Virus record (IMG/VR): IMGVR_UViG_3300043436_004382
Location: 1-64,000 of that record
Strand: one strand, 5' to 3'
Source of the DNA: a virus
DNA length: 64,000 bases
Under the pieces are notes generated by a model. That model saw only the letters and a list, made by a program, of their open reading frames with translations. It was not told the origin of the DNA and searched no databases. Position numbers and translations under genes: made by a program. This document shows positions 5,597 through 61,396 of this stretch, piece after piece; the first letter of the stretch is position 1; every line of letters begins with the position of its first letter.

Positions 5597-5681
5597 TGGT
5601 GCGGATGAAGGGACTCGAACCCCCACGTCGTGAAACACTAGATCCTAAGTCTAGCGCGGCTACCAATTACGCCACATCCGC
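5597..5681 (-). tRNA. tRNA-Leu (anticodon TAG), class II with long variable arm, CCA encoded
   Basis: Reverse complement gives GCGGATG-TG-GCGTAATTGGTAGCCGC..CTAGA-CTTAGGA-TCTAG..long variable arm..GGGGGTTCGAGTCCCTT-CATCCGC-ACCA. Confidence 0.75.
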
Positions 5682-5800: not shown

Positions 5801-6280
5801 TTAAACGGTGTGCGGTATCTGAACTCTCACACAAGTTTGAGGTTGGTGCTCATTCATCAAGAAATTATTGATGTAGCCCATAATATTGGCTGCTCCAATC
5901 GGATTCGCTGAGTGCACATAAACTTGTGGAAATCTAATCTGTAGGCCAATCTTTCTAAGTCTTGAGGTATCCAACGCTTCTGGGTACAAATCATAGAAAT
6001 AGTTAACCAACCATTTAGCACAATCGTATCCAGTTTTCTCCGTGATATTATTATAGTCAAGAGTGTAGTTAGGACTCACGTTATTGAAGTATTCTGACAT
6101 TGCTGAGTCACCCAGGTCGTGATCCAATGAGATCATGTGAATGTTATCTAATCCAAGTTCTTTCACCTTGTCAACGAACTCCTGATAGTTTCTAACCACT
6201 ATCCAATCTCCGCCGGCTGGATCAATTTTCGGTGTACGTACATCATCTAAGTAAATGCGAACTAATTTATTCTCCTCCAT
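5801..6280 (-). CDS. Hypothetical protein (IYLDDVR ... ISLDHDLGD motifs)
   Basis: 159-aa ORF immediately upstream of an RNA ligase; function not recognised. Confidence 0.45.
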   Translation of the reverse strand: MEENKLVRIYLDDVRTPKIDPAGGDWIVVRNYQEFVDKVKELGLDNIHMISLDHDLGDSAMSEYFNNVSPNYTLDYNNITEKTGYDCAKWLVNYFYDLYPEALDTSRLRKIGLQIRFPQVYVHSANPIGAANIMGYINNFLMNEHQPQTCVRVQIPHTV

Positions 6281-7343
6281 TTAGTAAAAATTTATTTGAA
6301 ATTGCTTTAAACGAAATTTTTCGATCGTGACTTCTGATAACAACTCCCTCTCTATCAAAATTTGGATTAAGTGTTGATTTTGCATCAGCGTAGTCAAGCA
6401 ATTGATCTATTGTATCAGGCAAAGTGAATTCGGTTTCAACGATTGGAACAATTGGTAAACCCAATCCCAAGATTAATTTAGTAAACTCTTCAAATCCCAA
6501 GTATTCTTGAGTATCAATATTGAATGCATTAAAGAAGTAAACCGCTTGGCCTCTTAATTTATACGGGTTCTTTTGAATTCCCTCACCCACTAATTCTCCT
6601 TGAATGCAGATATTGTAGCCAACTGACTCTAATTTAGTCTTAAGCTCCATTTCTCTAGCGACTTTCCAAAAAGTATTTTCATCGGTCTCAAGCAGTTCCA
6701 AATTACGGGAACAGGCTCCAAACTCTCCGTCCTTTAGGTAGAAAGTTGCGGACGATCCGTCCAATTTCTCAGTTACGTAAAAGGCCCGATCTTTCCAACT
6801 TTCGTAATGATCGGTTAAGTTCTGTACGCGCTCCTCATCAGTCTTGTGAATGAATGATGGGAACATGCCTTTAACCTTACCGGCTAATTCTGCTGGAATT
6901 GGCGGCTCATACTTAAGCACGCACATGTACTCTGTAACATCAGATCCTTCTTCGATAACTATTGCATTATCATAGGGTCCAAGCTGAAGTTGATCTCCCC
7001 AAGGCTGTTTACTGATTCCGATCTTCATTTCATCGCCCTTTTCCAAGACACTTAATGGTAAACACAGGCCTTGTGAAACTTGCCCCCTAAGTCTAATGGT
7101 TTTTAATCTGAATCCCTCTAAGTCTCCCATCTTTTTATATGAAGACTTTCTTAGGAATTCAAATTCTTTCTCCATTGGTAGAAACGAATCTATTTCAAAA
7201 TAAACGCAAAGGTCGCCCTCTGTGAATTCGCCTTTTTTTGCAACGACGTTCCAGCTATTGATCTGAACGATTTCAATTGCATCAGCCCCATCAATCGGTT
7301 TGATTGCACGGACTCTTTGAATGCTTGCTAATTTTCTTTCCAT
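6267..7343 (-). CDS. ATP-dependent RNA ligase with an N-terminal OB-fold-like RNA-binding domain (DRB0094/Rnl-type)
   Basis: Nucleotidyltransferase motif I VTEKLDGSS (KxDG). The N-terminus SIQRVRAIKPIDGADAIEIVQINSWNVVAKKGEF resembles a tRNA-binding OB fold. Confidence 0.7.
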   Translation of the reverse strand: MERKLASIQRVRAIKPIDGADAIEIVQINSWNVVAKKGEFTEGDLCVYFEIDSFLPMEKEFEFLRKSSYKKMGDLEGFRLKTIRLRGQVSQGLCLPLSVLEKGDEMKIGISKQPWGDQLQLGPYDNAIVIEEGSDVTEYMCVLKYEPPIPAELAGKVKGMFPSFIHKTDEERVQNLTDHYESWKDRAFYVTEKLDGSSATFYLKDGEFGACSRNLELLETDENTFWKVAREMELKTKLESVGYNICIQGELVGEGIQKNPYKLRGQAVYFFNAFNIDTQEYLGFEEFTKLILGLGLPIVPIVETEFTLPDTIDQLLDYADAKSTLNPNFDREGVVIRSHDRKISFKAISNKFLLNGGE

Positions 7344-7870: not shown

Positions 7871-8488
7871 TTATTTTAATTGTTTACGATAAAAAATTAC
7901 ATCATAGTGAGGAGCAACAAAATTAGCCCACTCAGCTGAAGATACTTCGTATGAATATCCTAACTTACTCAATTTTTCTATGATTTCTTTAGTTTTAGGT
8001 ATCAAATCTTCATTTAAGAAATCATGGAATTCTACAGTAATTTGATTTATTTTTGAGTAGGTTTCGTCTTGGATGTTGTTCAATAACTCATATTCTGAAC
8101 CTTCAATATCAATTTTTAATAAATCAATTTCAGTAATGTCGTTTTCTTTAATTATTTCGTCTAACGTTATTGTCAACACTTCATGTTTGACTCCATCGAA
8201 ATAATTAAAAATAGTTGAGCCATTATATGGCGAATTACTATCTTCGTAAAATTCAACAAGTTGATTTTGATTGTTTGAAATGACTCTATTATAGAGAACG
8301 TAATTATCTTTTTTGGGAATTTCGGAAAAATTTTTGAAGGAAGCTTCAACGAGTATAGCTTTCTTTAATTTATATACGTCTTCCATTTTCGTTGTAAACT
8401 CTCCTTTGCATGCTCCAAGATCTATAATTACAAGGTTTTCATTAAAGTACTCATCGAAAAAGGTATGTTCTTGAATATTGTTTTTCAT
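7871..8488 (-). CDS. FkbM-family SAM-dependent methyltransferase
   Basis: VIIDLGACKGEFT resembles the FkbM DIGANIGEF signature. Confidence 0.6.
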   Translation of the reverse strand: MKNNIQEHTFFDEYFNENLVIIDLGACKGEFTTKMEDVYKLKKAILVEASFKNFSEIPKKDNYVLYNRVISNNQNQLVEFYEDSNSPYNGSTIFNYFDGVKHEVLTITLDEIIKENDITEIDLLKIDIEGSEYELLNNIQDETYSKINQITVEFHDFLNEDLIPKTKEIIEKLSKLGYSYEVSSAEWANFVAPHYDVIFYRKQLK

Positions 8489-8489
8489 A

Positions 8490-9062
8490 TTAATCGTTAA
8501 ATAAGTTTACTAAGTAGCTAAACATTTCAAAATAGGGATGAGTGTTCGTATCATCGTATCCTAATTTTACCATGAAGTTATCATTCTCTTTCCGGTACAT
8601 CTCAAACATTCGACTGCCCGTCATCTTTGAGTACTGCACATTAGCGATACGATCGCATAACTTAACGAACACCGCGCCGGGAGTATTTCTGATTCCTTCA
8701 TAGTACTTGTCATTCGCGCGCTCATTACGGTTTTTACCTTTCTCATTAGTAACCGCATAGACGATATCAGCAGCCTCTTGACCAAGTATGGACTTTACGT
8801 CATTGTACGAAACTCGACAATCCTCTATTAAATCATGACCCCATGCTGCTCGCAAGCAGGCGGTTCTTAGTGTGACTGTCCTATCATTTCCACGATCGAT
8901 CTCACGAACTCCTGTGAAGTAGTCAACCTTATCGTCTAACAGGTGCCTGTACTTATCCGCAACATGAGCTACCATTCGTAAATGAAACTCGTAAGGTAGG
9001 TACGTATCGTACATGTGATTTGTTTCTGTGTGCTGATTAATGCACCATTGTGATGTGTTCAT
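8490..9062 (-). CDS. HD-domain (p)ppGpp hydrolase (small alarmone hydrolase, RelA/SpoT hydrolase family)
   Basis: HLRMVAHVA ... AAWGHDLIED (equivalent to AALLHDxxED) and KLCDRIANV (equivalent to DRLHNMRT). Confidence 0.65.
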   Translation of the reverse strand: MNTSQWCINQHTETNHMYDTYLPYEFHLRMVAHVADKYRHLLDDKVDYFTGVREIDRGNDRTVTLRTACLRAAWGHDLIEDCRVSYNDVKSILGQEAADIVYAVTNEKGKNRNERANDKYYEGIRNTPGAVFVKLCDRIANVQYSKMTGSRMFEMYRKENDNFMVKLGYDDTNTHPYFEMFSYLVNLFND

Positions 9063-9063
9063 A

Positions 9064-9801
9064 TTATTCCTCCATTGTTGGTTTCAACCAAATCTTTGTC
9101 ATAAAAATGTATTCAAATAGCGCAGGATACCTCATTAATACTCTGAGAGTTTCGGCAGTATCGTGTTTGAAACATTTAAGTAGTTCTTCCCTGATTCTCT
9201 CAGCTGATACGACTGCCATGAATACTTCATAATCGAAGTGCTTGATGTGCTGATGCATTTCAGCTGTGATTACAAAGCCCTTAGTGATCATGAACCTGAT
9301 CGCTCTTAGGATTCTCAAAGGATCGTCCTTGAAAGTAACCTCGCAAGGTAACGGTGTTCTAAGAACTCCATTTTTCAAATCCTCAATTCCGTTGAATGGA
9401 TCAATCAACGCTCCGTTCTCGTCCTTGGCTATTGCATTGAGCGTGAAGTCACGTCTTTCCAAGTCATCGAATAGAGTTCCTGGCTTGACGATTGGTGTTC
9501 TTGTAAAAGGTACGTATCCAATCTCTTTTCTGGCCATTACGAAATCCGCAACTCCCTGGTACTTGTGACCTTCTGGAAATTTAGCCCTGATCGTATAACA
9601 CTCTGCTGTTACCAAAAAGATCTGAAACTTCTCACGAGTCAAGTAGTCAACCAGAACTTCAAATAGGTCAGCCGCTTCCGGAAATTCTTCAATTAAAGAA
9701 TCCTTGGGCACGGCAACGAAATCAACGTCCTTTGACTGGACTCCAAGAATCTCGTCCCTGACCTTTCCACCAACTTCATAAAATTTAAAAAACGGTTTCA
9801 T
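9064..9801 (-). CDS. tRNA nucleotidyltransferase / poly(A) polymerase head domain (CCA-adding enzyme-like)
   Basis: GGKVRDEILG..DVDF, RRDFTLNAIA and DPLRILRAIRF class II nucleotidyltransferase motifs. Confidence 0.75.
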   Translation of the reverse strand: MKPFFKFYEVGGKVRDEILGVQSKDVDFVAVPKDSLIEEFPEAADLFEVLVDYLTREKFQIFLVTAECYTIRAKFPEGHKYQGVADFVMARKEIGYVPFTRTPIVKPGTLFDDLERRDFTLNAIAKDENGALIDPFNGIEDLKNGVLRTPLPCEVTFKDDPLRILRAIRFMITKGFVITAEMHQHIKHFDYEVFMAVVSAERIREELLKCFKHDTAETLRVLMRYPALFEYIFMTKIWLKPTMEE

Positions 9802-9818
9802 ATTTTTTAATATACTAA

Positions 9819-10487
9819 TTATCGGCCTTCATTTGTTTCATGGTGATCGTTTGGCAAAACCAAGCACCTAACTGGGCGATCCCTCATGATCTTTGCGATC
9901 TCCTGTAGAGAGTAAGGGCTTAGGTCATTACCGTCCATTCCAACGTCCATTGCTTTGCCTGCATGTATTTTATTCTCTGGGCCCAAGTGAACGTGACCGT
10001 GTAGGTGAATGACTCCACGATTCATATCGTGCCAGCTTGCAATGGGATAATGACACATGACCAAGGTCTTTTTAATGACCTCGCCTGGGTTTATTGAATT
10101 GGGTTCGTTTGGAATCGTAAGCTCAAGTCTCAAGTACTCGTGTACCGAACTGAACAACTTTTGGATTCCTCCCTTGTCCCTCTCGATGTGTTGGTCGTGA
10201 TTTCCGAGCAGGAGATGAATGTTCTTACACAGGATTCTCTGCCTAAACTCGGCTATATTCTCGTATCCTCCGAATGACCAGTCTCCCAAGTGGAATAGAA
10301 TATCGTCCTCCCTAACCAGGTGATTGATGTTGTTGATTATCGCCTCATTCATCTGCTCTAAGGTATCGAAATCCCTAGTCTTGCTTGACTCTGGCCAATT
10401 AGAGGTTCCCCTACAGATATTTGAGTGTTTATAGTGAGTGTCTGATGTAAACCAGATACGCTGATGTGGCTGTAATGTAATTTTCAT
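9819..10487 (-). CDS. Calcineurin-like metallophosphoesterase
   Basis: SDTH, LGDWSFGG, GNHD and HGHVH motifs. Confidence 0.7.
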   Translation of the reverse strand: MKITLQPHQRIWFTSDTHYKHSNICRGTSNWPESSKTRDFDTLEQMNEAIINNINHLVREDDILFHLGDWSFGGYENIAEFRQRILCKNIHLLLGNHDQHIERDKGGIQKLFSSVHEYLRLELTIPNEPNSINPGEVIKKTLVMCHYPIASWHDMNRGVIHLHGHVHLGPENKIHAGKAMDVGMDGNDLSPYSLQEIAKIMRDRPVRCLVLPNDHHETNEGR

Positions 10488-10496
10488 AGATATAAT

Positions 10497-10700
10497 TTAC
10501 TCTTCCTCTTGCCAAATTAGACCGTCTCCTTCAATTAAAATGTCGTCAGCTATATCCGCTAACATGTCGGGTGCCTCAATTAGAGCATCATCATTTTGAC
10601 ATATACACTCCCCAGGCCCATGACTTTCAAAGTACTTGGTGAGTTTGGCAATAGCAGCCTCCCTCTTTTCCGGAGTCCAGATTACTTTCCAATTTCTCAT
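10497..10700 (-). CDS. Hypothetical small protein
   Basis: 67-aa ORF. Confidence 0.3.
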   Translation of the reverse strand: MRNWKVIWTPEKREAAIAKLTKYFESHGPGECICQNDDALIEAPDMLADIADDILIEGDGLIWQEEE

Positions 10701-15490: not shown

Positions 15491-16627
15491 TCAATCAGCT
15501 AACTGGTTCCAAAAAGGTTTTTGATATTCAGGGCGAATCATTCTCCAAATTGCTTGATCATAATCTTTACCCTGTAACATTGAAAAGACAAGACCTTGAT
15601 ATTCGGTTGGGCAATTCGCTTGAATCCATAGTGCATCCTCCTTTTTGGTATTGAGTGGCTGGCTTAGTAATTCAGCCAAGATCTTTTTTGCATCAATTTC
15701 CTTCATTACAAAAGCAAACTTAAGAGCCCGAATCCAATCTCTAACCCATGAATCAAACTCGTCTGGCACGCTCTCAAGGTATTGACTTAAGTCATCTCCG
15801 TTTCGTAAGCAATCCCAAATGTCAAGGTTAGAAAAATTAGTCAGTAGTCTGTGTAACCTAACGTACTCGTCGAACTTGATCTTTATTCTATAATTGGATG
15901 GGTGGAATCTTAGGACAAAACCCTCCTTTCCAAATTCATTTAGGGCCTTTAGACTGCCAAATAATCCACGATCTATTGTGTTAATTGCGGTAGTAACAAT
16001 ATCCTCTTCAAGAATGCCAGATGAGTGAAATAGAGCTCTCGCTGTTCCCCAATTTACTTCACGACCGTCCATGACGGCTGACAGAAACATGAGCTTTTCT
16101 TCTGCATAGTCAACGACTATCCGGTTCTCAGGATAAATGATTTCACACACATAACTTACAGTCGGATGGAACTTGTCAAGATTGTACTTGGCCTTGAGTA
16201 TTTCAAGACCTGCCTTGGCCTGCTCAGATTCAAAGGATCCTCGAGTTGCCATGTGCCAATCATTGCTATAGTGAAATAGGATTCCCAAAGATCCGTCCAT
16301 TTTTTCTTGCACATAAACGTACTCGTCATGTAACGGAATCTCGCCCTTATGCTCAACTTCTTCGTAATTAAAGAACTTATTGAATCCTCGAGCAACTATC
16401 TTGTCCTCATGATCCAATATCAAGCCACGACACTGCAAAGTTACTGAGTCCCAACGCTGTTCGAATTGGCATTCTCTTGAGTAATTATAAATGGTAAGTG
16501 GAAGCGTCGGATGATCCTTTGCTTCCACTAATCCGTTATCAACATAAGGTTGTATTATTGCTCTAGTTAAGATCATAATCTTTGGTTTTTTCAATTTGCT
16601 GCCACAAGACTCCGTCAAATCCTTCAA
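15491..16627 (-). CDS. RNA ligase 1 (T4 RnlA-like)
   Basis: 378 aa (T4 Rnl1 is 374 aa). Motif I VQEKMDGSLGILF (KxDGSL). TGA stop. Confidence 0.65.
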   Translation of the reverse strand: MKDLTESCGSKLKKPKIMILTRAIIQPYVDNGLVEAKDHPTLPLTIYNYSRECQFEQRWDSVTLQCRGLILDHEDKIVARGFNKFFNYEEVEHKGEIPLHDEYVYVQEKMDGSLGILFHYSNDWHMATRGSFESEQAKAGLEILKAKYNLDKFHPTVSYVCEIIYPENRIVVDYAEEKLMFLSAVMDGREVNWGTARALFHSSGILEEDIVTTAINTIDRGLFGSLKALNEFGKEGFVLRFHPSNYRIKIKFDEYVRLHRLLTNFSNLDIWDCLRNGDDLSQYLESVPDEFDSWVRDWIRALKFAFVMKEIDAKKILAELLSQPLNTKKEDALWIQANCPTEYQGLVFSMLQGKDYDQAIWRMIRPEYQKPFWNQLAD

Positions 16628-16753
16628 TCATGTAGCGACTTACAATATTATAAAATGCCATGACCTCTTTAATCCGGTCTAGGCTCGGTGAAAATGCTAT
16701 TCCGTGCGAGTGGCCTCTAACCTCTCGATACTGTGCTCGGTACTCTATGAAAA

Positions 16754-17074
16754 TCATGAGGTTAGTAATTGAATAAGTAGATAAGACAATTTGTAACCGG
16801 TGAAAGCACCCAGGGCAGAAGGAATTGGAAATACAATTAGCTTTCCTAGGTGAGTTACATATTTAGGCCGATTCACGATTGTACCCATGTAAAAGTAGTA
16901 GGCGATGTATCCAAGCAGTACAGCAATATCCGTTCGAGTCGCAATGAACACGACTAGCATTGCACCAATGAAACCGAATGTGAAGTTGTCCCGGATTCCT
17001 TCCCAAACCTCTTCAGCAGTAGCGTCATTCCAATCTTTTACTATTTGCCTGAATGTTGCTCTCTGTTTTCTCAT
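16754..17074 (-). CDS. Membrane protein
   Basis: Three predicted TM segments. Confidence 0.4.
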   Translation of the reverse strand: MRKQRATFRQIVKDWNDATAEEVWEGIRDNFTFGFIGAMLVVFIATRTDIAVLLGYIAYYFYMGTIVNRPKYVTHLGKLIVFPIPSALGAFTGYKLSYLLIQLLTS

Positions 17075-17487
17075 AACTTAATTTCAAATCGGTCTCTCAT
17101 CTCCTGTACCTTCTCATCGGGTACTCCGTGCACGTTCTTGCCACCATGACGATTCTCAACGATTAAGGAAACTACATGGTACTCGAATTGCTTTGCTAAA
17201 TCTAGATATGCCTGCATCTCCCATTCTCTAGTGAATGTGTTTGACACTATAATTTCCGGATAGTATTGACCTGCACTTAGGTGGTTCTGTTCCATTGCCT
17301 CTTGTACAGATCGACGACACCATTCATGTGCGTCCTTTAATTTTGAACCGTCGAATTTATATTGACCGTCCTCATCATAGAAGAACTTATCGGCTTCAAA
17401 CACTACTCCGCTTGACCACATGTGATTTGCGAAAGTGCTCTTGCCTGAACCTGGAACTCCACGTAGGAGAATTAATACTCTACTCAT
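17071..17487 (-). CDS. P-loop kinase, polynucleotide kinase-like (T4 Pnk kinase-domain-like)
   Basis: LLRGVPGSGKST Walker A in a 138-aa protein adjacent to RNA ligase 1. Confidence 0.6.
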   Translation of the reverse strand: MSRVLILLRGVPGSGKSTFANHMWSSGVVFEADKFFYDEDGQYKFDGSKLKDAHEWCRRSVQEAMEQNHLSAGQYYPEIIVSNTFTREWEMQAYLDLAKQFEYHVVSLIVENRHGGKNVHGVPDEKVQEMRDRFEIKL

Positions 17488-18155
17488 TACTTAGTCTTTT
17501 TTAATACTACTTGATCAATTATACCATACTTAACGGCTTCGTCTGCGGTCAACCAAAAATCTCTAGTTGCGTCTTTCTTAACCTGGTCAGGTTTTTTACC
17601 ACAGTACTTGCCTAGGAGAATGAAGAGCTCATCATTGATTTTCTTCCATTCTTCCATGTCAACTTCAGCATCCTGGATATTTCCGCTGAAACCTCCACTG
17701 GATTGATGTAACATTGTTCTTGAGTGTTTTAGCGAGAATCTCTTGCCCTTTGTTCCTGCACCCAATAACACCGATCCCATCGAAGCGGCCATACCAGTAT
17801 TTACGGTAATAATGTCCGCATTGATGTAGTCCATTACATCGACCATTGAGAGTCCTGACTTGACTGATCCGCCTGGAGAGTCAATGTGCATTGTGATATC
17901 GGCTCCACCGACTGAATCCAGAAACATCAACTGGGCTTGAACAATTGTTGACATGTAGTCATTTACTGGTCCAGCAACCCAAAGAATACGGTCGCGCATT
18001 AATCTGGAAAAAATGTCCATTTGGGTAACGCGTAGTTCGCGCTCCTCTAGGATATACGGCGTCATTGACGCTTCAACTTGTTTTTGGTAATTATGCAAAT
18101 TCAGCGATGACACACCGTGCTCGCTCATTGCGTACTTTTGGAATTCATTCATCAT
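17487..18155 (-). CDS. clpP: ClpP-family serine protease
   Basis: DSPGGSV, MAASMGSVLLGAGTKGKR and TMLHQSSGG ClpP signatures. Confidence 0.8.
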   Translation of the reverse strand: MMNEFQKYAMSEHGVSSLNLHNYQKQVEASMTPYILEERELRVTQMDIFSRLMRDRILWVAGPVNDYMSTIVQAQLMFLDSVGGADITMHIDSPGGSVKSGLSMVDVMDYINADIITVNTGMAASMGSVLLGAGTKGKRFSLKHSRTMLHQSSGGFSGNIQDAEVDMEEWKKINDELFILLGKYCGKKPDQVKKDATRDFWLTADEAVKYGIIDQVVLKKTK

Positions 18156-32069: not shown

Positions 32070-34436
32070 TTATTTTATTAAGCCGGTTTTGACGATATAG
32101 AAATTCGTAGTTCCGCCGGAGGTTAAGGTAGGTGTCGTTATGGACTGAACTCCAGGATGAGTTGAGACTAAATTACTTGAACTTGAGTTTATGGTTGACC
32201 ATTGTGATGCTGTGAATATTCTGTAATTTGGAGTAGAGTACGGCCACGTAGAAATTAATCCGCTTCTTTTAGCATGAACTACGAATACATCAGCAATTGA
32301 TAGAATTCCATTAGAGTTAGCGTCCATTCGATAATAGTCTTTCGATACAAATGATTGGTACAGGACCTTTTGATTAAAGGACAACGCATCTGCTGAGCTT
32401 GGAGAGTCGACTATCGCTGTGTTGATATTGATCGTAAAATCGTGTTGATTAACGCTTAATGAAGTAGAGAATGAGTAGCTTCCGTTTGCAGCAGTTGTCG
32501 AAGAGCTCAATAAGTTGTACACCAAGTCAGTCTTTAATTTATAGGTCAGGTTGACCACAACATTTTGAATTCCGGTATTCTCAGCATTGTACACAAAGCC
32601 GGCATGAGTGAATGGCGCAACTGTGATTGTTCCAGCAGCAGAGAACGCATTTCCGCAAGTACCGCTACTCAGCTGAACTCTGAACAGAGTACCGTCTGTT
32701 TGGTTTGAGTATGAATTAGTTGTTCCAGTATTTGCAATATCGGTCCATGTTACTCCAGAATTTGTTGATCTTTGCCATTTGACAATTGTTCCGGTGTGAC
32801 CGCTCAAGGTCAAAGTTCCTGAATTTGTCGCGGTTGGATGAACTGCTGATGACACCGATCCGCCAGTCGGTGGAGTTCCGGAAGTCACCGTAATTATTTT
32901 TGAATCTGAAAATACTGCGCTTCCGCAGCTAGGAGTCTGCACCTCAACTCGATAATAATAAGTTCCAGCAGTATTAACTGTTTGTGTTAAGCTTGTGCTG
33001 GTGTTTGCAATATCCGTCCAATTTACGTTATTGACCGAACGTTGCCATTTATTTACATTACCTTGTTGACCGGACAGGGTCAATTCAGCCAGACCGCCTG
33101 AACATATTGAGTTGTTTGCAGCGAATACTGTGCCGGCTCTGGTCGGTTTAACTGATAAAAATACGCTTGATGTTGCGAGTCCTGCGCACGAGACTGGGCT
33201 CGTTGAATTTACGATTGCCCTATAGTAAGTTGTCCTAGTTAGGTTAGTAATTGTTAGGGTTGATGAGGTGCTTGAAATTGTTGTCCCAGCTGTAAAGAAA
33301 TTATCAAGCGAAGATTCCCAACGTACTACTGACCCCGTTAAATTAGTTAGAGTTAGAGTTGTACTGTTTGAACCTGAGCATACATTAATATTTCCACCCG
33401 TGATATAACCGCTTGAAGAATTACTAATTTCAACAGCCCTAGTCAGAATTGTAACACTGCTTGTAATATCTCCAGGCATGTCCCCATACTCGCAAAGGTA
33501 TCCGCCTAGAATCGTGTTAGGTAAATCGTTCCATTGTCCTAGATTAGCAGAATAGAACTGACCATAATGCTCACCACCTGAATTGTTGGGTTCTCCTGGC
33601 GCCCACTTAGCGTATTGGCCAGATACGGTGGTTGGACCTGAGCCAGTATTACCGTTTGAAAAGTTGATTCCTTTTTCGGGACCTGATATCCAGTGCCATC
33701 TACCCTCAACTGCGGCTTGACTGGCAAATGCTGTGGTTCCCTTTGCTGAGTTTACCAAGCCAACTTCGTCCGATGCACCGAACCAGCAATCACTGGCCAT
33801 TAGTCGCCAAACAAAATTATTTTCAGCTTCCGATGACATTGTTGCTAAATAGCCTGCTCTACCAAAATAAGATCGAGCTTGAGCAGAGGTTACTGAGTTT
33901 GTAAAGGTTATTGAGCCAGCTACGTATTCATAAAAGTGCTCAGTGAGAGGATTATAGAAAACTGCTCCAGCTACGAATGTTACTCTTCTTTGTAGTGCAT
34001 AACACGTCGTAGTGGTCGATCTAAATTCGACTCCTCTCAATACCGTTTGCCAGTCGGAAGCGGATGCTGTTCCACTAAATGCAAGTATTCCAGTAGTAGT
34101 ATTAAAGGACGAGCTAACTCCAGAAGGCAGAGTCCCAGTAGAGCGTAATTGATCTCCGCTCGTATATGTTTGTGAAATTTGAACCCTGAAGCCAGTGATG
34201 GTTCCATTCGCCGTTATTGTAATATTAGGATCAACCTTTGTCCAAGTATTGTACGTAGCTGACAAGGTTGAGGTACTGGAAGTTCCAAGATTAACTGAGG
34301 TCGCTTGAGCCATCGCTAATTTAGGGAATAGTAAAGCGAACGCAAGTATTATTAAAATAATGTTTTTCATATTTAAAGTACAAGTCTTGTTCCAATTGTT
34401 ATCGTGTAGTTCAACACATTTTGATTTATGGCCCAC
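32070..34436 (-). CDS. Large secreted surface/adhesin-like protein with a C-type lectin-like domain, Ig-like repeats and a dockerin/EF-hand-like C-terminal segment
   Basis: WAPGEPNNSGGEHYGQF...GQWNDLPN is a classic CTLD EPN/WND signature. The N-terminus has a TM/signal. Repeated ..KWQRS..W(T)DIANT.. modules. Confidence 0.55.
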   Translation of the reverse strand: MGHKSKCVELHDNNWNKTCTLNMKNIILIILAFALLFPKLAMAQATSVNLGTSSTSTLSATYNTWTKVDPNITITANGTITGFRVQISQTYTSGDQLRSTGTLPSGVSSSFNTTTGILAFSGTASASDWQTVLRGVEFRSTTTTCYALQRRVTFVAGAVFYNPLTEHFYEYVAGSITFTNSVTSAQARSYFGRAGYLATMSSEAENNFVWRLMASDCWFGASDEVGLVNSAKGTTAFASQAAVEGRWHWISGPEKGINFSNGNTGSGPTTVSGQYAKWAPGEPNNSGGEHYGQFYSANLGQWNDLPNTILGGYLCEYGDMPGDITSSVTILTRAVEISNSSSGYITGGNINVCSGSNSTTLTLTNLTGSVVRWESSLDNFFTAGTTISSTSSTLTITNLTRTTYYRAIVNSTSPVSCAGLATSSVFLSVKPTRAGTVFAANNSICSGGLAELTLSGQQGNVNKWQRSVNNVNWTDIANTSTSLTQTVNTAGTYYYRVEVQTPSCGSAVFSDSKIITVTSGTPPTGGSVSSAVHPTATNSGTLTLSGHTGTIVKWQRSTNSGVTWTDIANTGTTNSYSNQTDGTLFRVQLSSGTCGNAFSAAGTITVAPFTHAGFVYNAENTGIQNVVVNLTYKLKTDLVYNLLSSSTTAANGSYSFSTSLSVNQHDFTININTAIVDSPSSADALSFNQKVLYQSFVSKDYYRMDANSNGILSIADVFVVHAKRSGLISTWPYSTPNYRIFTASQWSTINSSSSNLVSTHPGVQSITTPTLTSGGTTNFYIVKTGLIK

Positions 34437-36202
34437 GCTCCTCCCCAGTTTATGTTGAATCTAAAGTTCTTTGTCACCTTAACGTTAGTTCCAATATTCG
34501 GTAGAATAACATAAGGAGACTGTAATAAAATATCGTTGTAGTAACTCACGTATGGAGCGTAAACTCCAAGCGCCATAAGCTTAATGTCTAGCTTTTTACT
34601 GACTCTCCAGTCGTACATTCCTCCAGCAATTAGAGCGGTTCCTAAAAAAGCTTCATCGTATACTTCTCCAACTGAAGCAGACGCCATGTACACAAGTTTT
34701 AATCTTTTAGATTTTCCAATATCTCTCATCTGGCCGAATGCAACACTATTATAGATCGAACCCTTACCTTCAAATCCAACAGTTAGAGTATTTGAAAGTA
34801 ATGTGATTCGTTTAGGCTTCATCCATGCATAGAAACCAGTAATGTTAGGCCCTTTGATTGCGGTTGTGTAGTCAAATAGAAATCCATGAGATCTACGCTG
34901 ATCGTATCTAACTGACGTGTAGTTGCCATTAATCTTTCCACCGAATGCAACATCGCCGTCTTTAAAATTAAAGCCGGCTAAATCGCTACCTGCAACAACA
35001 GTAGGTTTTAATCCATTCTTTGAATTGCCTGTTCCATTAGTAGGTGTTGATCTAACTGCGTTAGTTGAACCACTTAGTGCATCTGTTTTCTTGTCTTCAG
35101 CTGCTGCTTCTGTCTTAGTTGAACCGGCGCTCGAAGATCCTGAACCATCGCTTGAGCTGCCTGAACTCGAGCTGCTGGTCGATCCACCAGTTGAACTCGA
35201 CGATCCTGAGCCTGATCCTGAACCAGCAGTTGAGCTAGAAGATCCTGAACTAGATCCGCCAGTTGAACTCGACGATCCTGAGCCTGATCCTGAACCAGTA
35301 GTTGAACTCGACGAGCTTGGGCTAGTAGTTGAGCTAGAAGATCCTGAACTAGATCCGCCAGTTGAACTCGACGAGCTTGGGCTAGTAGTTGAGCTAGAAG
35401 ATCCTGAACTAGATCCGCCAGTTGAACTCGACGATCCTGAGCCTGATCCTGAACCAGTAGTTGAGCTAGAAGATCCTGAACTAGAGGTTGATGATCCACT
35501 AGTCGATCCTCCGCCTACAGGCTGCTGAGGCGTCGAACTTCCTCCTTGAGTTGAACCGCTCTGAGATTGTGGCGTTCCTGTAGAAGATTGAGTTGAGCTT
35601 CCAGTAGATCCAGCAGTTGAGCTTGATCCGCCTGAGCCCTGTCCGCTTGCCGAAGTAGATCCAGCAGGCTGAGAACTTCCGCTGGAAGAATTTGAGGAAT
35701 TTGTTGATTGAGGCGTTCCTTGTCCGCCTGCGTCATTTGATTTAGTCTTTTTAGAATTACTACTTCTACTTCTACTTCTACTTGATCCATCCGACCCACC
35801 GCTTCCGCTGGTAACCGAAGAAGTCAAGCCTCCCAACGAATTAACACTTCCTAACGCATCACTGATTGTAGTTAATGATCCCATTATTGAGATCATTGTC
35901 ATTGCTGTATTTTGAGTAAGTGAAACGACGGTAGATGTTCCGATGCCTGCACATGGCGAAACTTGGCTGTATGAGTTAAACACCGAATTTGCCCATGAGT
36001 CAAACGTTCCATTTGAAAAGTCAGCTTCGTTAAAAACTCGTACTTGATTGTAGTAAGTTACAGCAACAGAATTTGAGCCGGCAGGAATTACAATTCTTTC
36101 GGTTTTTCCATTACATGGATTCACATAACTGTAGGTAAAGCTTTGAGCCATTGCTGACAAAGCTGTACATAATACAATTAATGTTATGAGTATCCTTTTC
36201 AT
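34373..36202 (-). CDS. Secreted protein with a long Ser/Gly/Thr-rich low-complexity region and a C-terminal predicted beta-barrel (outer-membrane protein-like)
   Basis: Signal peptide. Tandem ~60-bp DNA repeats encode SSGSSSSTGG units. C-terminal ~250 aa has alternating hydrophobic beta-strands ending in ..ITIGTRLVL. Confidence 0.5.
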   Translation of the reverse strand: MKRILITLIVLCTALSAMAQSFTYSYVNPCNGKTERIVIPAGSNSVAVTYYNQVRVFNEADFSNGTFDSWANSVFNSYSQVSPCAGIGTSTVVSLTQNTAMTMISIMGSLTTISDALGSVNSLGGLTSSVTSGSGGSDGSSRSRSRSSNSKKTKSNDAGGQGTPQSTNSSNSSSGSSQPAGSTSASGQGSGGSSSTAGSTGSSTQSSTGTPQSQSGSTQGGSSTPQQPVGGGSTSGSSTSSSGSSSSTTGSGSGSGSSSSTGGSSSGSSSSTTSPSSSSSTGGSSSGSSSSTTSPSSSSSTTGSGSGSGSSSSTGGSSSGSSSSTAGSGSGSGSSSSTGGSTSSSSSGSSSDGSGSSSAGSTKTEAAAEDKKTDALSGSTNAVRSTPTNGTGNSKNGLKPTVVAGSDLAGFNFKDGDVAFGGKINGNYTSVRYDQRRSHGFLFDYTTAIKGPNITGFYAWMKPKRITLLSNTLTVGFEGKGSIYNSVAFGQMRDIGKSKRLKLVYMASASVGEVYDEAFLGTALIAGGMYDWRVSKKLDIKLMALGVYAPYVSYYNDILLQSPYVILPNIGTNVKVTKNFRFNINWGGAWAINQNVLNYTITIGTRLVL

Positions 36203-37884: not shown

Positions 37885-39807
37885 TTAGTTTTTGATTATT
37901 CTTTTTGCAGTGATTCGGTTATCACTAGTTGTTTGTAAAACTGCTGTGTAAGTTCCAGGAGTCAAGAAGCCTAGATCTGCTGAGTATCTGTATTTTCCTT
38001 CAGGTATTTGTTCGTTAATTATCTCTATTACGTTCTTACCGTCTAGTGTATAAACTGATACAACTGCTCTAGTGTCTTCTTTAACGCTGAAAATTACCTG
38101 AATTTGTCCTTGTGTTGGATTAGGATAAACTTCAAAATCTTCAACACCAATATTAAATCCTCCACCCATGACTCTCAATACTGAGACCATTCCGTTTGTT
38201 GGAGTGATTACCATATCTCTGGCTGAAGCGTCTCCTGCGAATTTACGAGTAGTATACAAAGGACTTTTACCCCATTCGTCTTGAGGCTTAAGTGCTGCGA
38301 ATTGAATAGTAACTACTTCTTCGCCATTGTTCATTAAGTTATCTTTACCGGTTGGATCAAATCCTCCCCATTCAACTACTCCATTCGATGGATTAACGAA
38401 TGCCATCCATTTTTGAGATTTTTCAGTGCCGTTAACACCTCTGAACTCCAATAGAGATTCATCGTACTTTAGAGCTAATTGAAGAGCTCCTACTCGATCC
38501 GAACCGTTAGTTAAAACCTTTACTGGAATATTAACTAGGTTACCTTCTTCTACTGATAATTTAGGAACGTTAACCTCCATTACTGAAAGAGTTAAATTAT
38601 CGTATTCAACGGTTTCATCAATTACGTATTTGTGAGCATTTGCTGGGTTAACAATTGGAATTGGAGTTAAACGTGCCATGTTATAACCGGTACCGTTAGC
38701 ATCACCAGGAGAAGCAACATAGAACTTAACAGAGTCTACTACTCCGCCACTAATTGTGTAATAAAGTTCGGTTGTACCTGGAATGGTTGATCTATAATTA
38801 GTAGATGATCCGTTAATTGTTGAGTATTCTGAAGCAGAGAAGAATAACACATCTTTAACAGAATTCGGCCATGTGCTGAAACGGCCAGCGATTCTTCCGA
38901 ATACACCGTAAACGTCAGCAACGGTAATTCCGTTTGATCCGTTAACGTCTCCTGTGTAGTAGTCAAAACCAGTAGGAGTAGCTACTCCTAACATCCAGTC
39001 ATTGATTTTTTGAGCATCTGCGGTTGAGACGATGTTACCTACGCTAAGAGTATCACCTTTAACATAGAGGCGAGCATCATAGTAAGTAGTATCAACATCT
39101 TCTGAGAAAGAGAATTTACCTAGAGTGTTAGTTGTGTAGGTAGCAACCTGAGTCCAAGTAGAACCAGTTTTAGGCTTTTTCTCTAAAGCCAGAGTTAAGT
39201 TCTTTGCTGGAGATCCAGTCACGTTTGCGAATTCACCACGAAAATTAAGCTTAACGTTTTTCATGACTCCACCGTAACTATAAAGAGCTAATGTGTCATC
39301 TAAACCGTTAATGTTCGCAGAGCTCGCTGGGAAAGTGGTTGTTCCGGTAATCGCGAGATTTGAAATTGAAGTGTACGTGTGGAAGTTTATTGAGTGAGTA
39401 AATTCAACGTTGAATTGTCTTCCGTCTGGAATAGTGAATGTTGAACTAGAACCGGTGTACGCGATGGTAATTGTGATATTACCCTCAGTGGAGTCAACCA
39501 CGTAATTCAGGCTTTGTGACCAGCTAGTATTGGCTGAGGTAACAACTGGATTTGCGCCGGCAAATGCAGTCTTGTCATACCATACTCTGAACTGGAGACC
39601 TGTAATTTTTGTGGAAGTTGGATTGGCATAGCAGAAGCTAGCATAGGTTTTGCCCGAAGCAACAGTTCCGACCTGGTACGAAGAATCGATCAGGACGTAA
39701 GGTGTTGCTGAGGTTGGTGCCACTGGACAAGTTTGTGCAGCAACCTGATTGGAAATGCCTACTAATAAGAGGCACACCCCAAGAAATAAAGCTTGGATTT
39801 GTTTCAT
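37885..39807 (-). CDS. Secreted protein with a C-terminal type IX secretion system (T9SS) sorting domain
   Basis: Signal peptide MKQIQALFLGVCLLLVGISNQVAAQ. C-terminus VYPNPTQGQIQVIFSVKEDTRAVVSVYTLDGKNVIEIINE..YRYSADLGFLTPGTYTAVLQT matches the Por/T9SS C-terminal domain pattern. Confidence 0.6.
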   Translation of the reverse strand: MKQIQALFLGVCLLLVGISNQVAAQTCPVAPTSATPYVLIDSSYQVGTVASGKTYASFCYANPTSTKITGLQFRVWYDKTAFAGANPVVTSANTSWSQSLNYVVDSTEGNITITIAYTGSSSTFTIPDGRQFNVEFTHSINFHTYTSISNLAITGTTTFPASSANINGLDDTLALYSYGGVMKNVKLNFRGEFANVTGSPAKNLTLALEKKPKTGSTWTQVATYTTNTLGKFSFSEDVDTTYYDARLYVKGDTLSVGNIVSTADAQKINDWMLGVATPTGFDYYTGDVNGSNGITVADVYGVFGRIAGRFSTWPNSVKDVLFFSASEYSTINGSSTNYRSTIPGTTELYYTISGGVVDSVKFYVASPGDANGTGYNMARLTPIPIVNPANAHKYVIDETVEYDNLTLSVMEVNVPKLSVEEGNLVNIPVKVLTNGSDRVGALQLALKYDESLLEFRGVNGTEKSQKWMAFVNPSNGVVEWGGFDPTGKDNLMNNGEEVVTIQFAALKPQDEWGKSPLYTTRKFAGDASARDMVITPTNGMVSVLRVMGGGFNIGVEDFEVYPNPTQGQIQVIFSVKEDTRAVVSVYTLDGKNVIEIINEQIPEGKYRYSADLGFLTPGTYTAVLQTTSDNRITAKRIIKN

Positions 39808-41875: not shown

Positions 41876-42829
41876 TTATATTTTTTCTAAGTGTTTGTCC
41901 ATTGAGATTGAATTAACTATTGCTTCGATTGCAGCTGCAATTGATGGAGCACAGCTTACCACCTGGATCTTGGGGTTATTGATTTGCTCAATAGAATCAG
42001 TAATGATTAGCTTATCAAGATCAGTTGAGCCTGCAATTCTTTCATGACCTAGGCCTGACAGTACTCCATGTGAGATCACCGCAGTTACCTTCTTTGCACC
42101 GCCTTCTTTTAAGAGTCGAGCTGCATTGACTAAGGTTCCGCCGGTGTCTATCATATCGTCCACTAGTATCACGTGACGATCCTTGACGTCTCCAATCAAA
42201 TCCATTCTCTCAATTGAATTTGGCTTGTCTCTTAGTTTTGATAGCATCGCAAAGTGAGTGTCCGGAAATTTATACAGAAACTTCTGATAGAAACGGCTCG
42301 CTCTTTTTACGCCACCTGCATCTGGGGAACAGATACAGTACTCGTCAGAGGTTAGAGTCCTAATGAATGGAGCGAATGCTACATGACCAGGAATCATGTT
42401 GACTGGAATGTCAAAGAATCCTTGAATCTGTTCTGCATGTAGATCGATTGAAATGATTCGGTTGGCACCTGCCGTTTGTAAAAGATCGGCCATTAATTTT
42501 GCACCGATTGCTCCGCGCATGCCTTCCTTTCGATCCTGTCTTGAATAGCCAAAGTACGGCAATACTACAATTACTTCAGACGCAGATGCACGTTTTGCGG
42601 CATCTATTGAGAGTAATAGTGTCAACATTTTCTCAGGAGAGGTTGTGCTTGAGACCAAGAAAACTTTCTTGTCCCTAACCGATTCCATGAACTGCGGGCT
42701 AATCTCGCCGTCAGAAAAGGTGTCCACCTTAAATTTGCCTAGAATTTGGTCGTAGTCGTCAGAGTCCAATTGGATCGCGATGTCTTTGGCTAGCTTTGAG
42801 CCGTCGATTGAGAAAATTTTGTAGTTCAT
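41876..42829 (-). CDS. prs: Ribose-phosphate pyrophosphokinase (PRPP synthetase)
   Basis: VVLPYFGYSRQDRK, DLHAEQIQGFFDIP and VDDMIDTGGT motifs. Confidence 0.85.
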   Translation of the reverse strand: MNYKIFSIDGSKLAKDIAIQLDSDDYDQILGKFKVDTFSDGEISPQFMESVRDKKVFLVSSTTSPEKMLTLLLSIDAAKRASASEVIVVLPYFGYSRQDRKEGMRGAIGAKLMADLLQTAGANRIISIDLHAEQIQGFFDIPVNMIPGHVAFAPFIRTLTSDEYCICSPDAGGVKRASRFYQKFLYKFPDTHFAMLSKLRDKPNSIERMDLIGDVKDRHVILVDDMIDTGGTLVNAARLLKEGGAKKVTAVISHGVLSGLGHERIAGSTDLDKLIITDSIEQINNPKIQVVSCAPSIAAAIEAIVNSISMDKHLEKI

Positions 42830-61300: not shown

Positions 61301-61319
61301 GTTGTTCTATTTGTATTAG

Positions 61320-61396
61320 AGGTCAGGACAGGATTCGAACCTGTAATATAGTGCATCCAGTAGATGCTTGCGTCTGACCAATTCCGCCACCTGACT
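61320..61396 (-). ncRNA. tRNA-like element 1 (class II Leu-like D-arm, canonical T-arm, aberrant anticodon/variable region)
   Basis: AGTCAGG-TG-GCGGAATTGGTCAGACGC..AGCAT-CTACTGG-ATGCA..ACAGGTTCGAATCCTGT-CCTGACC. The 1-72 pair is mismatched and position 34 would be A. Confidence 0.4.

Follow-up and report, generated by a model that had tools for sequence, protein, structure and literature searches.

A divergent small alarmone hydrolase in a tRNA-end repair gene cluster of a phage

The window analyzed here is a stretch of 64,000 nucleotides (nt) of viral DNA (positions 1 to 64,000 of the IMG/VR record IMGVR_UViG_3300043436_004382), in which a gene for a 190-amino-acid (aa) protein with an HD phosphohydrolase motif lies directly beside the gene for a tRNA CCA-adding enzyme. 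The locus raises the question of what such a protein does during infection. The original prediction took it for a RelA/SpoT-type hydrolase that degrades host alarmones and so blocks the stringent response, and offered as an alternative that it could be the HD domain of a bacterial CCA enzyme split off into a gene of its own. We assign the protein to the small alarmone hydrolases (SAHs) and consider that its best explanation combines counter-defence against host toxins of the RelA/SpoT homologue (RSH) type, known as toxSAS, with the de-blocking of tRNA ends, a reading to which we give about an even chance. Blocking of the stringent response is a reading that the gene neighbourhood supports less well.

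The open reading frame (ORF) of the HD gene runs from 8490 to 9062 on the minus strand and begins with ATG. It was recovered as first described, together with its two signature motifs, AAWGHDLIED (residues 72-81; 8820-8849, minus strand) and DRIANV (residues 137-142; 8637-8654, minus strand), the latter forming part of KLCDRIAN. The junctions with the genes on both sides read TAA-T-ATG, leaving a spacing of 1 nt, and GGAGGA stands just 5' of the start codon, within the 3' end of the CCA gene. In a database of 5.8 billion proteins the HD protein has 3070 homologues, the best 120 of them at 69-98% identity, and it matches 3107 clusters formed at 50% identity with E <= 1e-3, 149 of them with E <= 1e-30. 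Eleven of its positions are invariant in 90 diverse relatives. Given so many homologues and clusters and this degree of conservation, the ORF is clearly a real gene and not a chance reading frame.

The family assignment rests on several comparisons. As a single sequence searched against the PDB with phmmer, the protein matches RSH hydrolases only, with Drosophila Mesh1 (E 1e-6) and the Pseudomonas aeruginosa SAH (E 2e-6) ahead of human MESH1, Rel, and SpoT. A family profile was built from an alignment of the window protein with 89 representatives (alignment A1), and it gives the same picture at greater depth, with E-values of 3e-15 for the P. aeruginosa SAH and 3e-14 for Drosophila Mesh1, followed by Staphylococcus aureus Rel (7.5e-12), SpoT (3.8e-11), MESH1 (1e-10), and also RelH; the Rel, SpoT, and MESH1 entries as a group fall between 1e-12 and 1e-8. 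The NCBIfam model TIGR00691 (spoT_relA) matches at E 5e-6 and the phage family phrog_990 at E 2.8e-24. Pfam and NCBIfam models match the HD region only, apart from a chance-level match to DUF927 (E 0.18), indicating a single-domain architecture. Judged by its sequence, the protein is a member of the RSH hydrolase family, i.e., a small alarmone hydrolase.

The catalytic residues of the family are in place. H27, H76, D77, E80, D137, and N141 are invariant in the 90 relatives and D81 is conserved in at least 90% of them. The putative metal ligands H27, H76, D77, and D137 align to their counterparts in the P. aeruginosa SAH and Mesh1. H27 sits in a PYxFHL motif, and H76-D77 and E80-D81 together make up the HDxxED signature, here HDLIED, which aligns with HDTLED in the P. 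aeruginosa SAH and HDVVED in Mesh1; KLCDRIAN likewise aligns with KLCDRITN and KLADKLDN, respectively. PDB entry 6z3o is, by its title, the E74Q mutant of the P. aeruginosa SAH, and the sole difference from wild type in the HMMER alignment is the residue aligned to E80. On these motifs the HD protein is apparently an active enzyme.

The predicted fold agrees with the motifs. An AlphaFold model built on alignment A1 reached a predicted local distance difference test score (pLDDT) of 95.5 and a predicted template modelling score (pTM) of 0.92, and a Foldseek comparison of this model with the PDB lists 50 matches, of which numbers 1-47 are without exception hydrolase domains of RSH proteins, with the P. 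aeruginosa SAH at the top (template modelling score 0.69-0.76). The clade that includes the window protein also has features of its own, among them five further invariant residues (Y18, Y24, G109, R112, and K134). In the window protein's own lineage there is in addition an insertion of about 19 residues at about positions 43-66, between H27 and the HD motif, where model confidence is lower and which shows up as lower-case columns in hhalign output. Sequence, profile, catalytic motifs, and predicted fold thus all back the RelA/SpoT-type assignment with which the analysis began.

Among characterized proteins, the P. aeruginosa SAH (PDB 6yvc, 6z3n, and 6z3o) is the closest counterpart. It is the best profile match, with an alignment that spans most of the protein, and the best fold match, of similar size and single-domain, and shares with the window clade the HDxxED signature, a near-identical KLCDRI(A/T)N motif, and the lack of an RRK stretch found in Mesh1. 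In contrast to the window protein, it is the product of a proteobacterial chromosomal gene; the two are only about 22% identical, and the insertion and the five clade-specific residues are features of the window protein. Mesh1 and MESH1 (PDB 3nqw, 3nr1, and 5vxa) include the best single-sequence match and share the fold and the metal and catalytic motifs, but are eukaryotic and about 19% identical. The SAHs of Salmonella phages SSU5 and PVP-SE1 resemble the window protein in being phage-encoded, single-domain RSH hydrolases. We compared the SSU5 protein alone of these two, using SSU5_099, which we infer from its annotation and its match to the Pfam family HD_4 (E 7.6e-19) to be the SAH called PaSpo. 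It aligns to the A1 profile with an hhalign probability of 97.3% (E 1.6e-11) but at about 21% identity, placing it in a different subfamily. Its listed neighbours are mostly hypothetical, with Eaa and LprI-family proteins among them, and include no annotated RNA-repair gene within 10 kb.

How, then, is the adjacency of a CCA enzyme to be understood? The gene immediately upstream (9064-9801, minus strand), a neighbour already named in the original prediction, has its stop 1 nt before the HD start codon and encodes a class II CCA-adding-type tRNA nucleotidyltransferase of 245 aa comprising head and neck only (PolyA_pol E 2e-18, PolyA_pol_RNAbd E 3e-5, NCBIfam CCA tRNA nucleotidyltransferase E 1.6e-30, phrog_24229 E 1.6e-57). 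It aligns to residues 1-180 only of Escherichia coli Cca (33% identity, E 3e-27), so the phage CCA enzyme has no HD region of its own. The HD gene could accordingly be pictured as the missing HD domain of a multifunctional CCA enzyme from bacteria, starting as it does 1 nt after an enzyme that lacks the C-terminal half and adjoining a CCA gene in 7 of 50 clusters of related phage loci (see below). As a claim of homology this is ruled out by direct profile comparison, since A1 aligns to full-length E. coli Cca with an hhalign probability of just 1.2%, as against 97.3% for SSU5_099. The NCBIfam multifunctional CCA model NF008137 gave no match to the HD protein at E <= 1, and no CCA enzyme appears among the PDB matches of query or profile or among the 50 Foldseek matches listed. 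No search returned a best match, or any significant match, to the HD domains of CCA enzymes, so the refuting result named in the original prediction did not arise, and the signature itself is HDLGK in Cca as against HDxxED in the window protein, the latter being that of RSH hydrolases. We therefore give the idea of a split-off Cca domain next to no probability.

Likeness to Cca is possible solely as functional analogy. In both cases an HD-superfamily phosphoesterase is physically associated with a CCA-adding nucleotidyltransferase, through fused domains in Cca and as separate genes in the phage, and by this analogy alone the phage protein might clear phosphate blocks from the tRNA 3' end before CCA repair.

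The CCA gene is one of several RNA-repair genes around the HD gene, which is the third in a tight run on the minus strand with the order Metallophos-CCA-HD-FkbM-x-x-Rnl-cREC-tRNA-Leu, where x denotes small ORFs. The run opens with a calcineurin-like metallophosphoesterase (9819-10487, minus strand; Metallophos E 7.9e-7, phrog_547 E 1.5e-45), a candidate RNA 3'-phosphatase or cyclic phosphodiesterase that accompanies the HD gene in further phage loci as well. Beginning 1 nt past the HD stop is a gene for an FkbM-family methyltransferase (7871-8488, minus strand; Methyltransf_21 E 7.7e-19). Further downstream are an RNA ligase that carries an OB domain at its N terminus (PHA02142 OB plus RNA_ligase; 6267-7343, minus strand; PF21189 E 1.2e-40, PF09414 E 3.2e-27, phrog_968 E 2.9e-88) and, overlapping the end of the ligase gene, a protein with a cyclic-phosphate-processing receiver-like domain, cREC (5801-6280, minus strand; cREC_REC E 3.1e-20). 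A tRNA-Leu(UAG) gene (5597-5681, minus strand; called by ARAGORN, 56.3 bits with the Rfam tRNA model) marks the downstream end of the repair cluster. In the 98%-identical contig L002 a 107-aa ORF stands in place of the FkbM methyltransferase, for which a function as an RNA 2'-O-methyltransferase is conceivable by analogy to the part that Hen1 plays in the Pnkp/Hen1 repair of bacteria.

Further upstream, at 15491-18155 (minus strand), the window has a second RNA-repair set, comprising an RNA ligase of the T4 Rnl1 type (15491-16627, minus strand; RNA_lig_T4_1 E 8.6e-18), an AAA_33 P-loop kinase that is a candidate polynucleotide 5'-kinase (17071-17487, minus strand; AAA_33 E 4.9e-12), and then a phage ClpP protease. 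The phage thus carries two different RNA ligases, one of the OB type and one of the Rnl1 type.

The association recurs in related phages. We collected 80 IMG/VR loci with relatives at 59-97% identity and six more by exact-protein look-up, called ORFs, and sorted the HD proteins into 50 clusters by dereplication at 90% identity; neighbours were detected with one-round profiles, each started from a single protein of the window or of a locus. The resulting counts are descriptive and come from loci centred on the HD gene, with the scatter of the associations checked on a neighbour-joining tree. A CCA enzyme lies within 300 bp of the HD gene in 7/50 clusters, within 3 kb in 9/50, and within 10 kb in 13/50. 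At the same three distances the figures are 3, 11, and 14 of the 50 clusters for cREC; 1, 5, and 11 for the OB-type RNA ligase; 0, 4, and 6 for the metallophosphoesterase; and 1, 2, and 6 for SmpB, the tmRNA-binding ribosome-rescue factor (loci L003, L027, L044, L045, L059, L061, L063, and L071). At least one of the nine genes for RNA repair or translation included in the search is present within 300 bp in 13/50 clusters, within 3 kb in 22/50, and within 10 kb in 32/50. The Thg1-like 3'-5' polymerase, an enzyme of tRNA 5'-end repair, is found in 0/50, 1/50, and 6/50 clusters at these distances, and a HAD_SAK_2 phosphatase occurs within 10 kb in 13/50 (one neighbour of these two kinds is at 10756-11604 of L005).

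Gene order is not conserved within these associations. The arrangement Metallophos-CCA-HD-...-Rnl-cREC of the window is repeated in L008, while other loci have HD-CCA (L044 and L063), cREC-HD (L060 and L021), Metallophos-x-kinase-cREC-x-HD-Rnl (L031), Metallophos-x-cREC-x-kinase-x-HD-x-Rnl (L064), or SmpB-HD (L071); the AAA_33-type kinase is 257-740 bp from the HD gene in L031, L064, and L070. HD copies adjacent to a CCA gene occupy at least five separate places on the neighbour-joining tree of HD proteins, and in a jumbo phage contig of 311 kb the HD gene is located within a tRNA array. Natural fusions were surveyed in two sets of relatives. Ten longer relatives yielded one HD-cREC fusion (P0265, with a C-terminal cREC domain, cREC_REC E 1.7e-12) and one fusion to an N-terminal helix-turn-helix (HTH) of the DnaA_C type, and ten N-terminally extended relatives yielded one more DnaA_C-type HTH (the two HTH fusions being P0262 and P0165) and no other recognizable domain; several of the extensions without one measure 100-150 aa. 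Among the 150 best representatives no fusion of HD to a nucleotidyltransferase was seen. An apparent SmpB-HD fusion in L071 was rejected, the two being separate ORFs (9496-9939 and 9872-10507) whose ends overlap by 68 nt. The order-independent linkage to CCA, cREC, ligase, and kinase genes, together with the cREC fusion, suggests that in these phages the selected role of the HD protein concerns the 3' ends of RNA or tRNA.

Published work offers a substrate for such a role. Stand-alone SAHs of Salmonella phages SSU5 (PaSpo) and PVP-SE1 (PbcSpo) neutralize all five of five toxSAS tested, including those that pyrophosphorylate tRNA (Jimmy et al. 2020, PMC7229694). The toxins FaRel2, PhRel, PhRel2, and CapRel pyrophosphorylate tRNA at its 3' CCA end, and the SAHs MESH1 and ATfaRel restore aminoacylation of tRNA pyrophosphorylated by FaRel2 (Kurata et al. 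2021), meaning that MESH1 can strip the 3'-pyrophosphate from toxSAS-modified tRNA; a later paper reports that PaSpo of SSU5 strips the modification installed by FaRel2. CapRel is an anti-phage defence (PMC9712102). Genes for an “HD-alarmone PDease” were described in jumbo phages by Iyer et al. (2021, PMC7824862), who predicted that they counter alarmone-based host responses, noted that HD-like domains may serve as linear phosphatases in phage RNA repair, and defined cREC as a domain linked to RNA ligases and predicted to process cyclic phosphates. The concept is the same as here and already published, but the proteins were treated there as counter-nucleotide enzymes, without a link to the CCA enzyme. 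A phage SAH has also been annotated in Pakpunavirus, with discussion of (p)ppGpp versus (p)ppApp (PMC12846349). A literature search of incomplete coverage found no paper tying a phage SAH to a phage CCA enzyme or an RNA-repair operon. Since two phage SAHs have been shown to neutralize toxSAS upon heterologous expression, the mere presence of an SAH in the window is ordinary; a phage-encoded SAH is of an already known kind, and the tRNA-repair-operon setting is the new point.

Taken with the promiscuity of the tested SAHs, this leads us to predict that alarmone nucleotides and tRNA ends bearing a 3'-pyrophosphate are probably both substrates of the HD protein. In the mechanism that we envisage, for which substrate and counter-defence role are drawn from gene context and published SAH biochemistry, the HD gene would be co-transcribed, and probably translationally coupled, with the genes for the metallophosphoesterase and the truncated CCA-adding enzyme. 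By family resemblance, H27, H76, D77, and D137 would hold the metal (Mn2+ in characterized relatives), the E80-D81 pair would activate water, and the enzyme would remove pyrophosphate esterified to the ribose 3' oxygen. The products of toxSAS would thereby be undone, stripping the 3'-pyrophosphate from the CCA end of tRNA and making recharging possible, and (pp)pApp and (p)ppGpp would be hydrolysed too, probably with the same active site. The HD enzyme may in this way form part of a toolkit for tRNA-end repair and counter-defence, near two RNA ligases, a kinase, and cREC.

Several observations weigh against this dual role. As regards the enzyme itself, substrate choice is not readable from sequence, and the RRK stretch that precedes the PY...H motif in Mesh1 is TNHxY in the window clade, so that base recognition may differ from that of Mesh1 and Rel. 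The profile check named in the original prediction came out divided, because the spoT_relA model is matched whereas Pfam HD_4 (PF13328) gives the window protein alone 18.3 bits, below its gathering cut-off of 27.2. That cut-off is an operational threshold and not a biological criterion, and the clade diverges from the Pfam seed; HD_4 matches 45 of the 90 clade members at E <= 0.01, at best with E 6.7e-10, and its low scores explain why most relatives have no precomputed Pfam domain. As regards the neighbourhood, 18/50 clusters have no RNA-repair gene within 10 kb, and unbiased clustering of the neighbours within 3 kb (given by their Pfam names) places DUF6717, YqeY, and NAMPT at frequencies similar to those of the repair genes, with Prs-like genes in 12/50 clusters and Band_7 in 11/50 (13 by profile search). 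The counts are also inflated by synteny shared through descent and have no genome-wide background to be set against, for which reasons we grade the RNA-repair linkage as moderately strong contextual evidence, not as proof. The link to the CCA enzyme is further tempered by the tRNA genes of the window, about 15 of 23 of which do not encode the 3' CCA, meaning that a CCA enzyme is needed for tRNA maturation anyway. Finally, neither toxSAS nor RNA-repair genes were found beside bacterial homologues in any of 71 loci, and the ordinary contexts of the Bacteroidota homologues suggest that the ancestral role was probably nucleotide (alarmone) hydrolysis. A reading of the gene as the antitoxin of a toxin-antitoxin module was dropped for want of a toxSAS partner in those same 71 loci.

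The contexts of the Bacteroidota homologues favour the closest rival, a pure alarmone hydrolase that degrades host (p)ppGpp, and perhaps (p)ppApp, against the stringent response, keeping transcription, tRNA and rRNA synthesis, and translation high during infection without any role at RNA ends. The homology evidence all points to hydrolases of (p)ppGpp and (p)ppApp, the orphan homologues of Bacteroidota in housekeeping contexts fit a function in the nucleotide pool, many HD copies have no RNA-repair neighbour, and an alarmone target has already been predicted for jumbo phages and for the Pakpunavirus SAH (PMC7824862; PMC12846349). Such a hydrolase would nonetheless leave unexplained both the tight, reordered linkage to CCA, cREC, ligase, and kinase genes and the HD-cREC fusion, and the tested SAHs are not alarmone-specific; we regard it as possible but doubtful. 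At the opposite pole, large phages might have recruited this SAH clade from Bacteroidota as a dedicated tRNA 3'-end de-blocker that replaces the HD domain of Cca and works with the truncated CCA enzyme, cREC, kinase, and ligase, its target being the pyrophosphate (or phosphate) that would be left by defence toxins such as the CapRel-type toxSAS. This we advance only tentatively, as something like a one-in-four proposition in our judgement.

The same neighbours admit a different chemistry, in which the 2',3'-cyclic phosphate that a host tRNA nuclease leaves behind is first opened by a cyclic phosphodiesterase (cREC or else the metallophosphoesterase), the HD enzyme removes the resulting 2'- or 3'-monophosphate, and the CCA enzyme or an RNA ligase acts next, so that an unrelated HD clade would fill the role ascribed to the HD domain in E. 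coli Cca. This would suit the loci where cREC adjoins or is fused to HD, the Metallophos-kinase-cREC-HD-ligase cassettes of L031 and L064, and a phage CCA enzyme that is without the C-terminal half of Cca, HD domain included. The ED dyad and DxxxN are, however, motifs of RSH-family pyrophosphohydrolases, and a metallophosphoesterase able to do the job is already encoded two genes upstream. We know of no RSH hydrolase that acts on RNA monophosphate ends, and we think a healing monophosphatase of this kind unlikely. It would draw some support from MESH1, which according to work cited in Kurata et al. (2021) is an NADPH phosphatase that removes the ribose 2'-phosphate. That activity bears equally on a MESH1-like phosphatase acting on a phosphorylated derivative of nicotinamide adenine dinucleotide (NAD) or ADP-ribose in support of phage NAD+ salvage, with which the Prs-like genes (adjacent to the HD gene in 3/50 clusters, besides those within 3 kb), the presence of NAMPT within 10 kb in 13/50, and a ribose-phosphate pyrophosphokinase gene in the window itself (41876-42829, minus strand; phrog_619 E 4.6e-45) are consistent. 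As the latter lies 33 kb away, neither fusions nor operons with NAD enzymes were observed, and the closest relative in sequence and structure is the P. aeruginosa SAH rather than MESH1, an NAD(P)-related function appears very improbable.

Where the gene comes from can be read in part from the distribution of its relatives. A phage origin of the window is supported by its 23 tRNA genes, T4-type topoisomerase II subunits, and PHROG matches, and by a related contig that encodes a gp23-type capsid protein; the IMG/VR viral contig L008 carries a 97%-identical HD copy in identical gene order. When the 4.7-kb cluster was compared at the nucleotide level with 50,697 phage records, no match appeared, so the phage has no sequenced close relative among those records, and at the protein level identity to relatives from isolated phages does not exceed 35%. 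The nearest are the “phosphohydrolases” of Tenacibaculum jumbo phages PTm1, PTm5, and pT24 (28-35% identity), those of PTm1 and PTm5 being the closest annotated phage homologues at 34-35% and without RNA-repair neighbours; relatives at a greater distance are found in Pseudomonas phages of the Pakpunavirus-like type and in phages of Caulobacter and Erwinia. The PTm1 homologue is BBI90623.1, not BBI90576.1, the example of Iyer et al. (PMC7824862), which falls in the PTm1 accession range; as the two accessions differ, we do not claim that the proteins are identical. With the P. aeruginosa SAH as probe, SAH-like genes were detected in 139 phage records.

Cellular homologues at 40-50% identity belong overwhelmingly to Bacteroidota, including Kordia algicida OT-1 (on a complete chromosome), Maribacter, Polaribacter, Chitinophagaceae, Salinivirgaceae, and Bacteroidales; the clade is also present in Nannocystis. 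Their neighbours include RumA/TrmA-like and RlmL-like RNA methyltransferases, a SIS-domain protein, a fatty-acid hydroxylase, and an ABC-type protein. The family is probably an orphan SAH of Bacteroidota, and because it is an orphan chromosomal gene there, the phage copies are probably host-derived. The window also encodes a 640-aa protein (37885-39807, minus strand) with a cohesin domain and a C-terminal Por_Secre_tail sorting domain of type IX secretion, which hints at a Bacteroidota host, in agreement with the spread of the cellular HD homologues.

Other features of the window concern its RNA content. Its 23 tRNA genes (called by ARAGORN) span 5597-61396, about 8 of them with CCA at the 3' end in the DNA, and the main array, supported by tRNA gene calls and Rfam, occupies 22232-25811 on the minus strand; an Rfam scan of the window found tRNAs only. 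One gene at 61319-61396 is a tRNA-Ser with the unusual anticodon ACU and a low Rfam score of 37.3 bits. A homologue of Ro60 with TROVE and vWA domains is encoded at 20126-21751 (minus strand; TROVE E 1.5e-6, vWA_Ro60 E 2e-6), and about 320 nt downstream lies an odd tRNA-like gene (19730-19802, minus strand), called tRNA-SeC(UCA) by ARAGORN and matched as a partial tRNA by Rfam (48.7 bits), which could act as a suppressor tRNA for UGA or else represent the tRNA-like module of a Y-RNA-type Ro60 partner. L075 and L076 likewise have a Ro60 homologue, at a distance of 2 kb from the HD gene. In relatives (L014, L020, L026, L044, L063, and L065) the HD gene often has Prs-like and NAMPT genes beside it, suggesting an NAD+ salvage module in the same accessory region. 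Two large ORFs (788 and 609 aa) in the region 32070-36202 (minus strand) have no Pfam or PHROG match.

The window protein is a new, divergent SAH that merits a targeted experiment, although it would not surprise a specialist. Its value lies in the context, for it belongs to a large, mostly unannotated clade, most members of which Pfam overlooks, that numbers over 3000 metagenomic clusters at 50% identity, is common to the chromosomes of Bacteroidota and their large phages, and occurs repeatedly in phage operons for tRNA-end repair. Should tRNA ends be a target of the enzyme, it would provide a natural infection setting for tRNA depyrophosphorylation, a reaction observed to date only in co-expression and in vitro experiments, and would add one more step to a phage tRNA-repair repertoire of kinase/phosphatase, ligase, CCA enzyme, and Thg1. 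If the clade proves to have been recruited as a dedicated de-blocker, it would represent the first natural enzymatic counter-defence carried by a phage against immunity that works by tRNA pyrophosphorylation, set in a complete tRNA-end repair operon.

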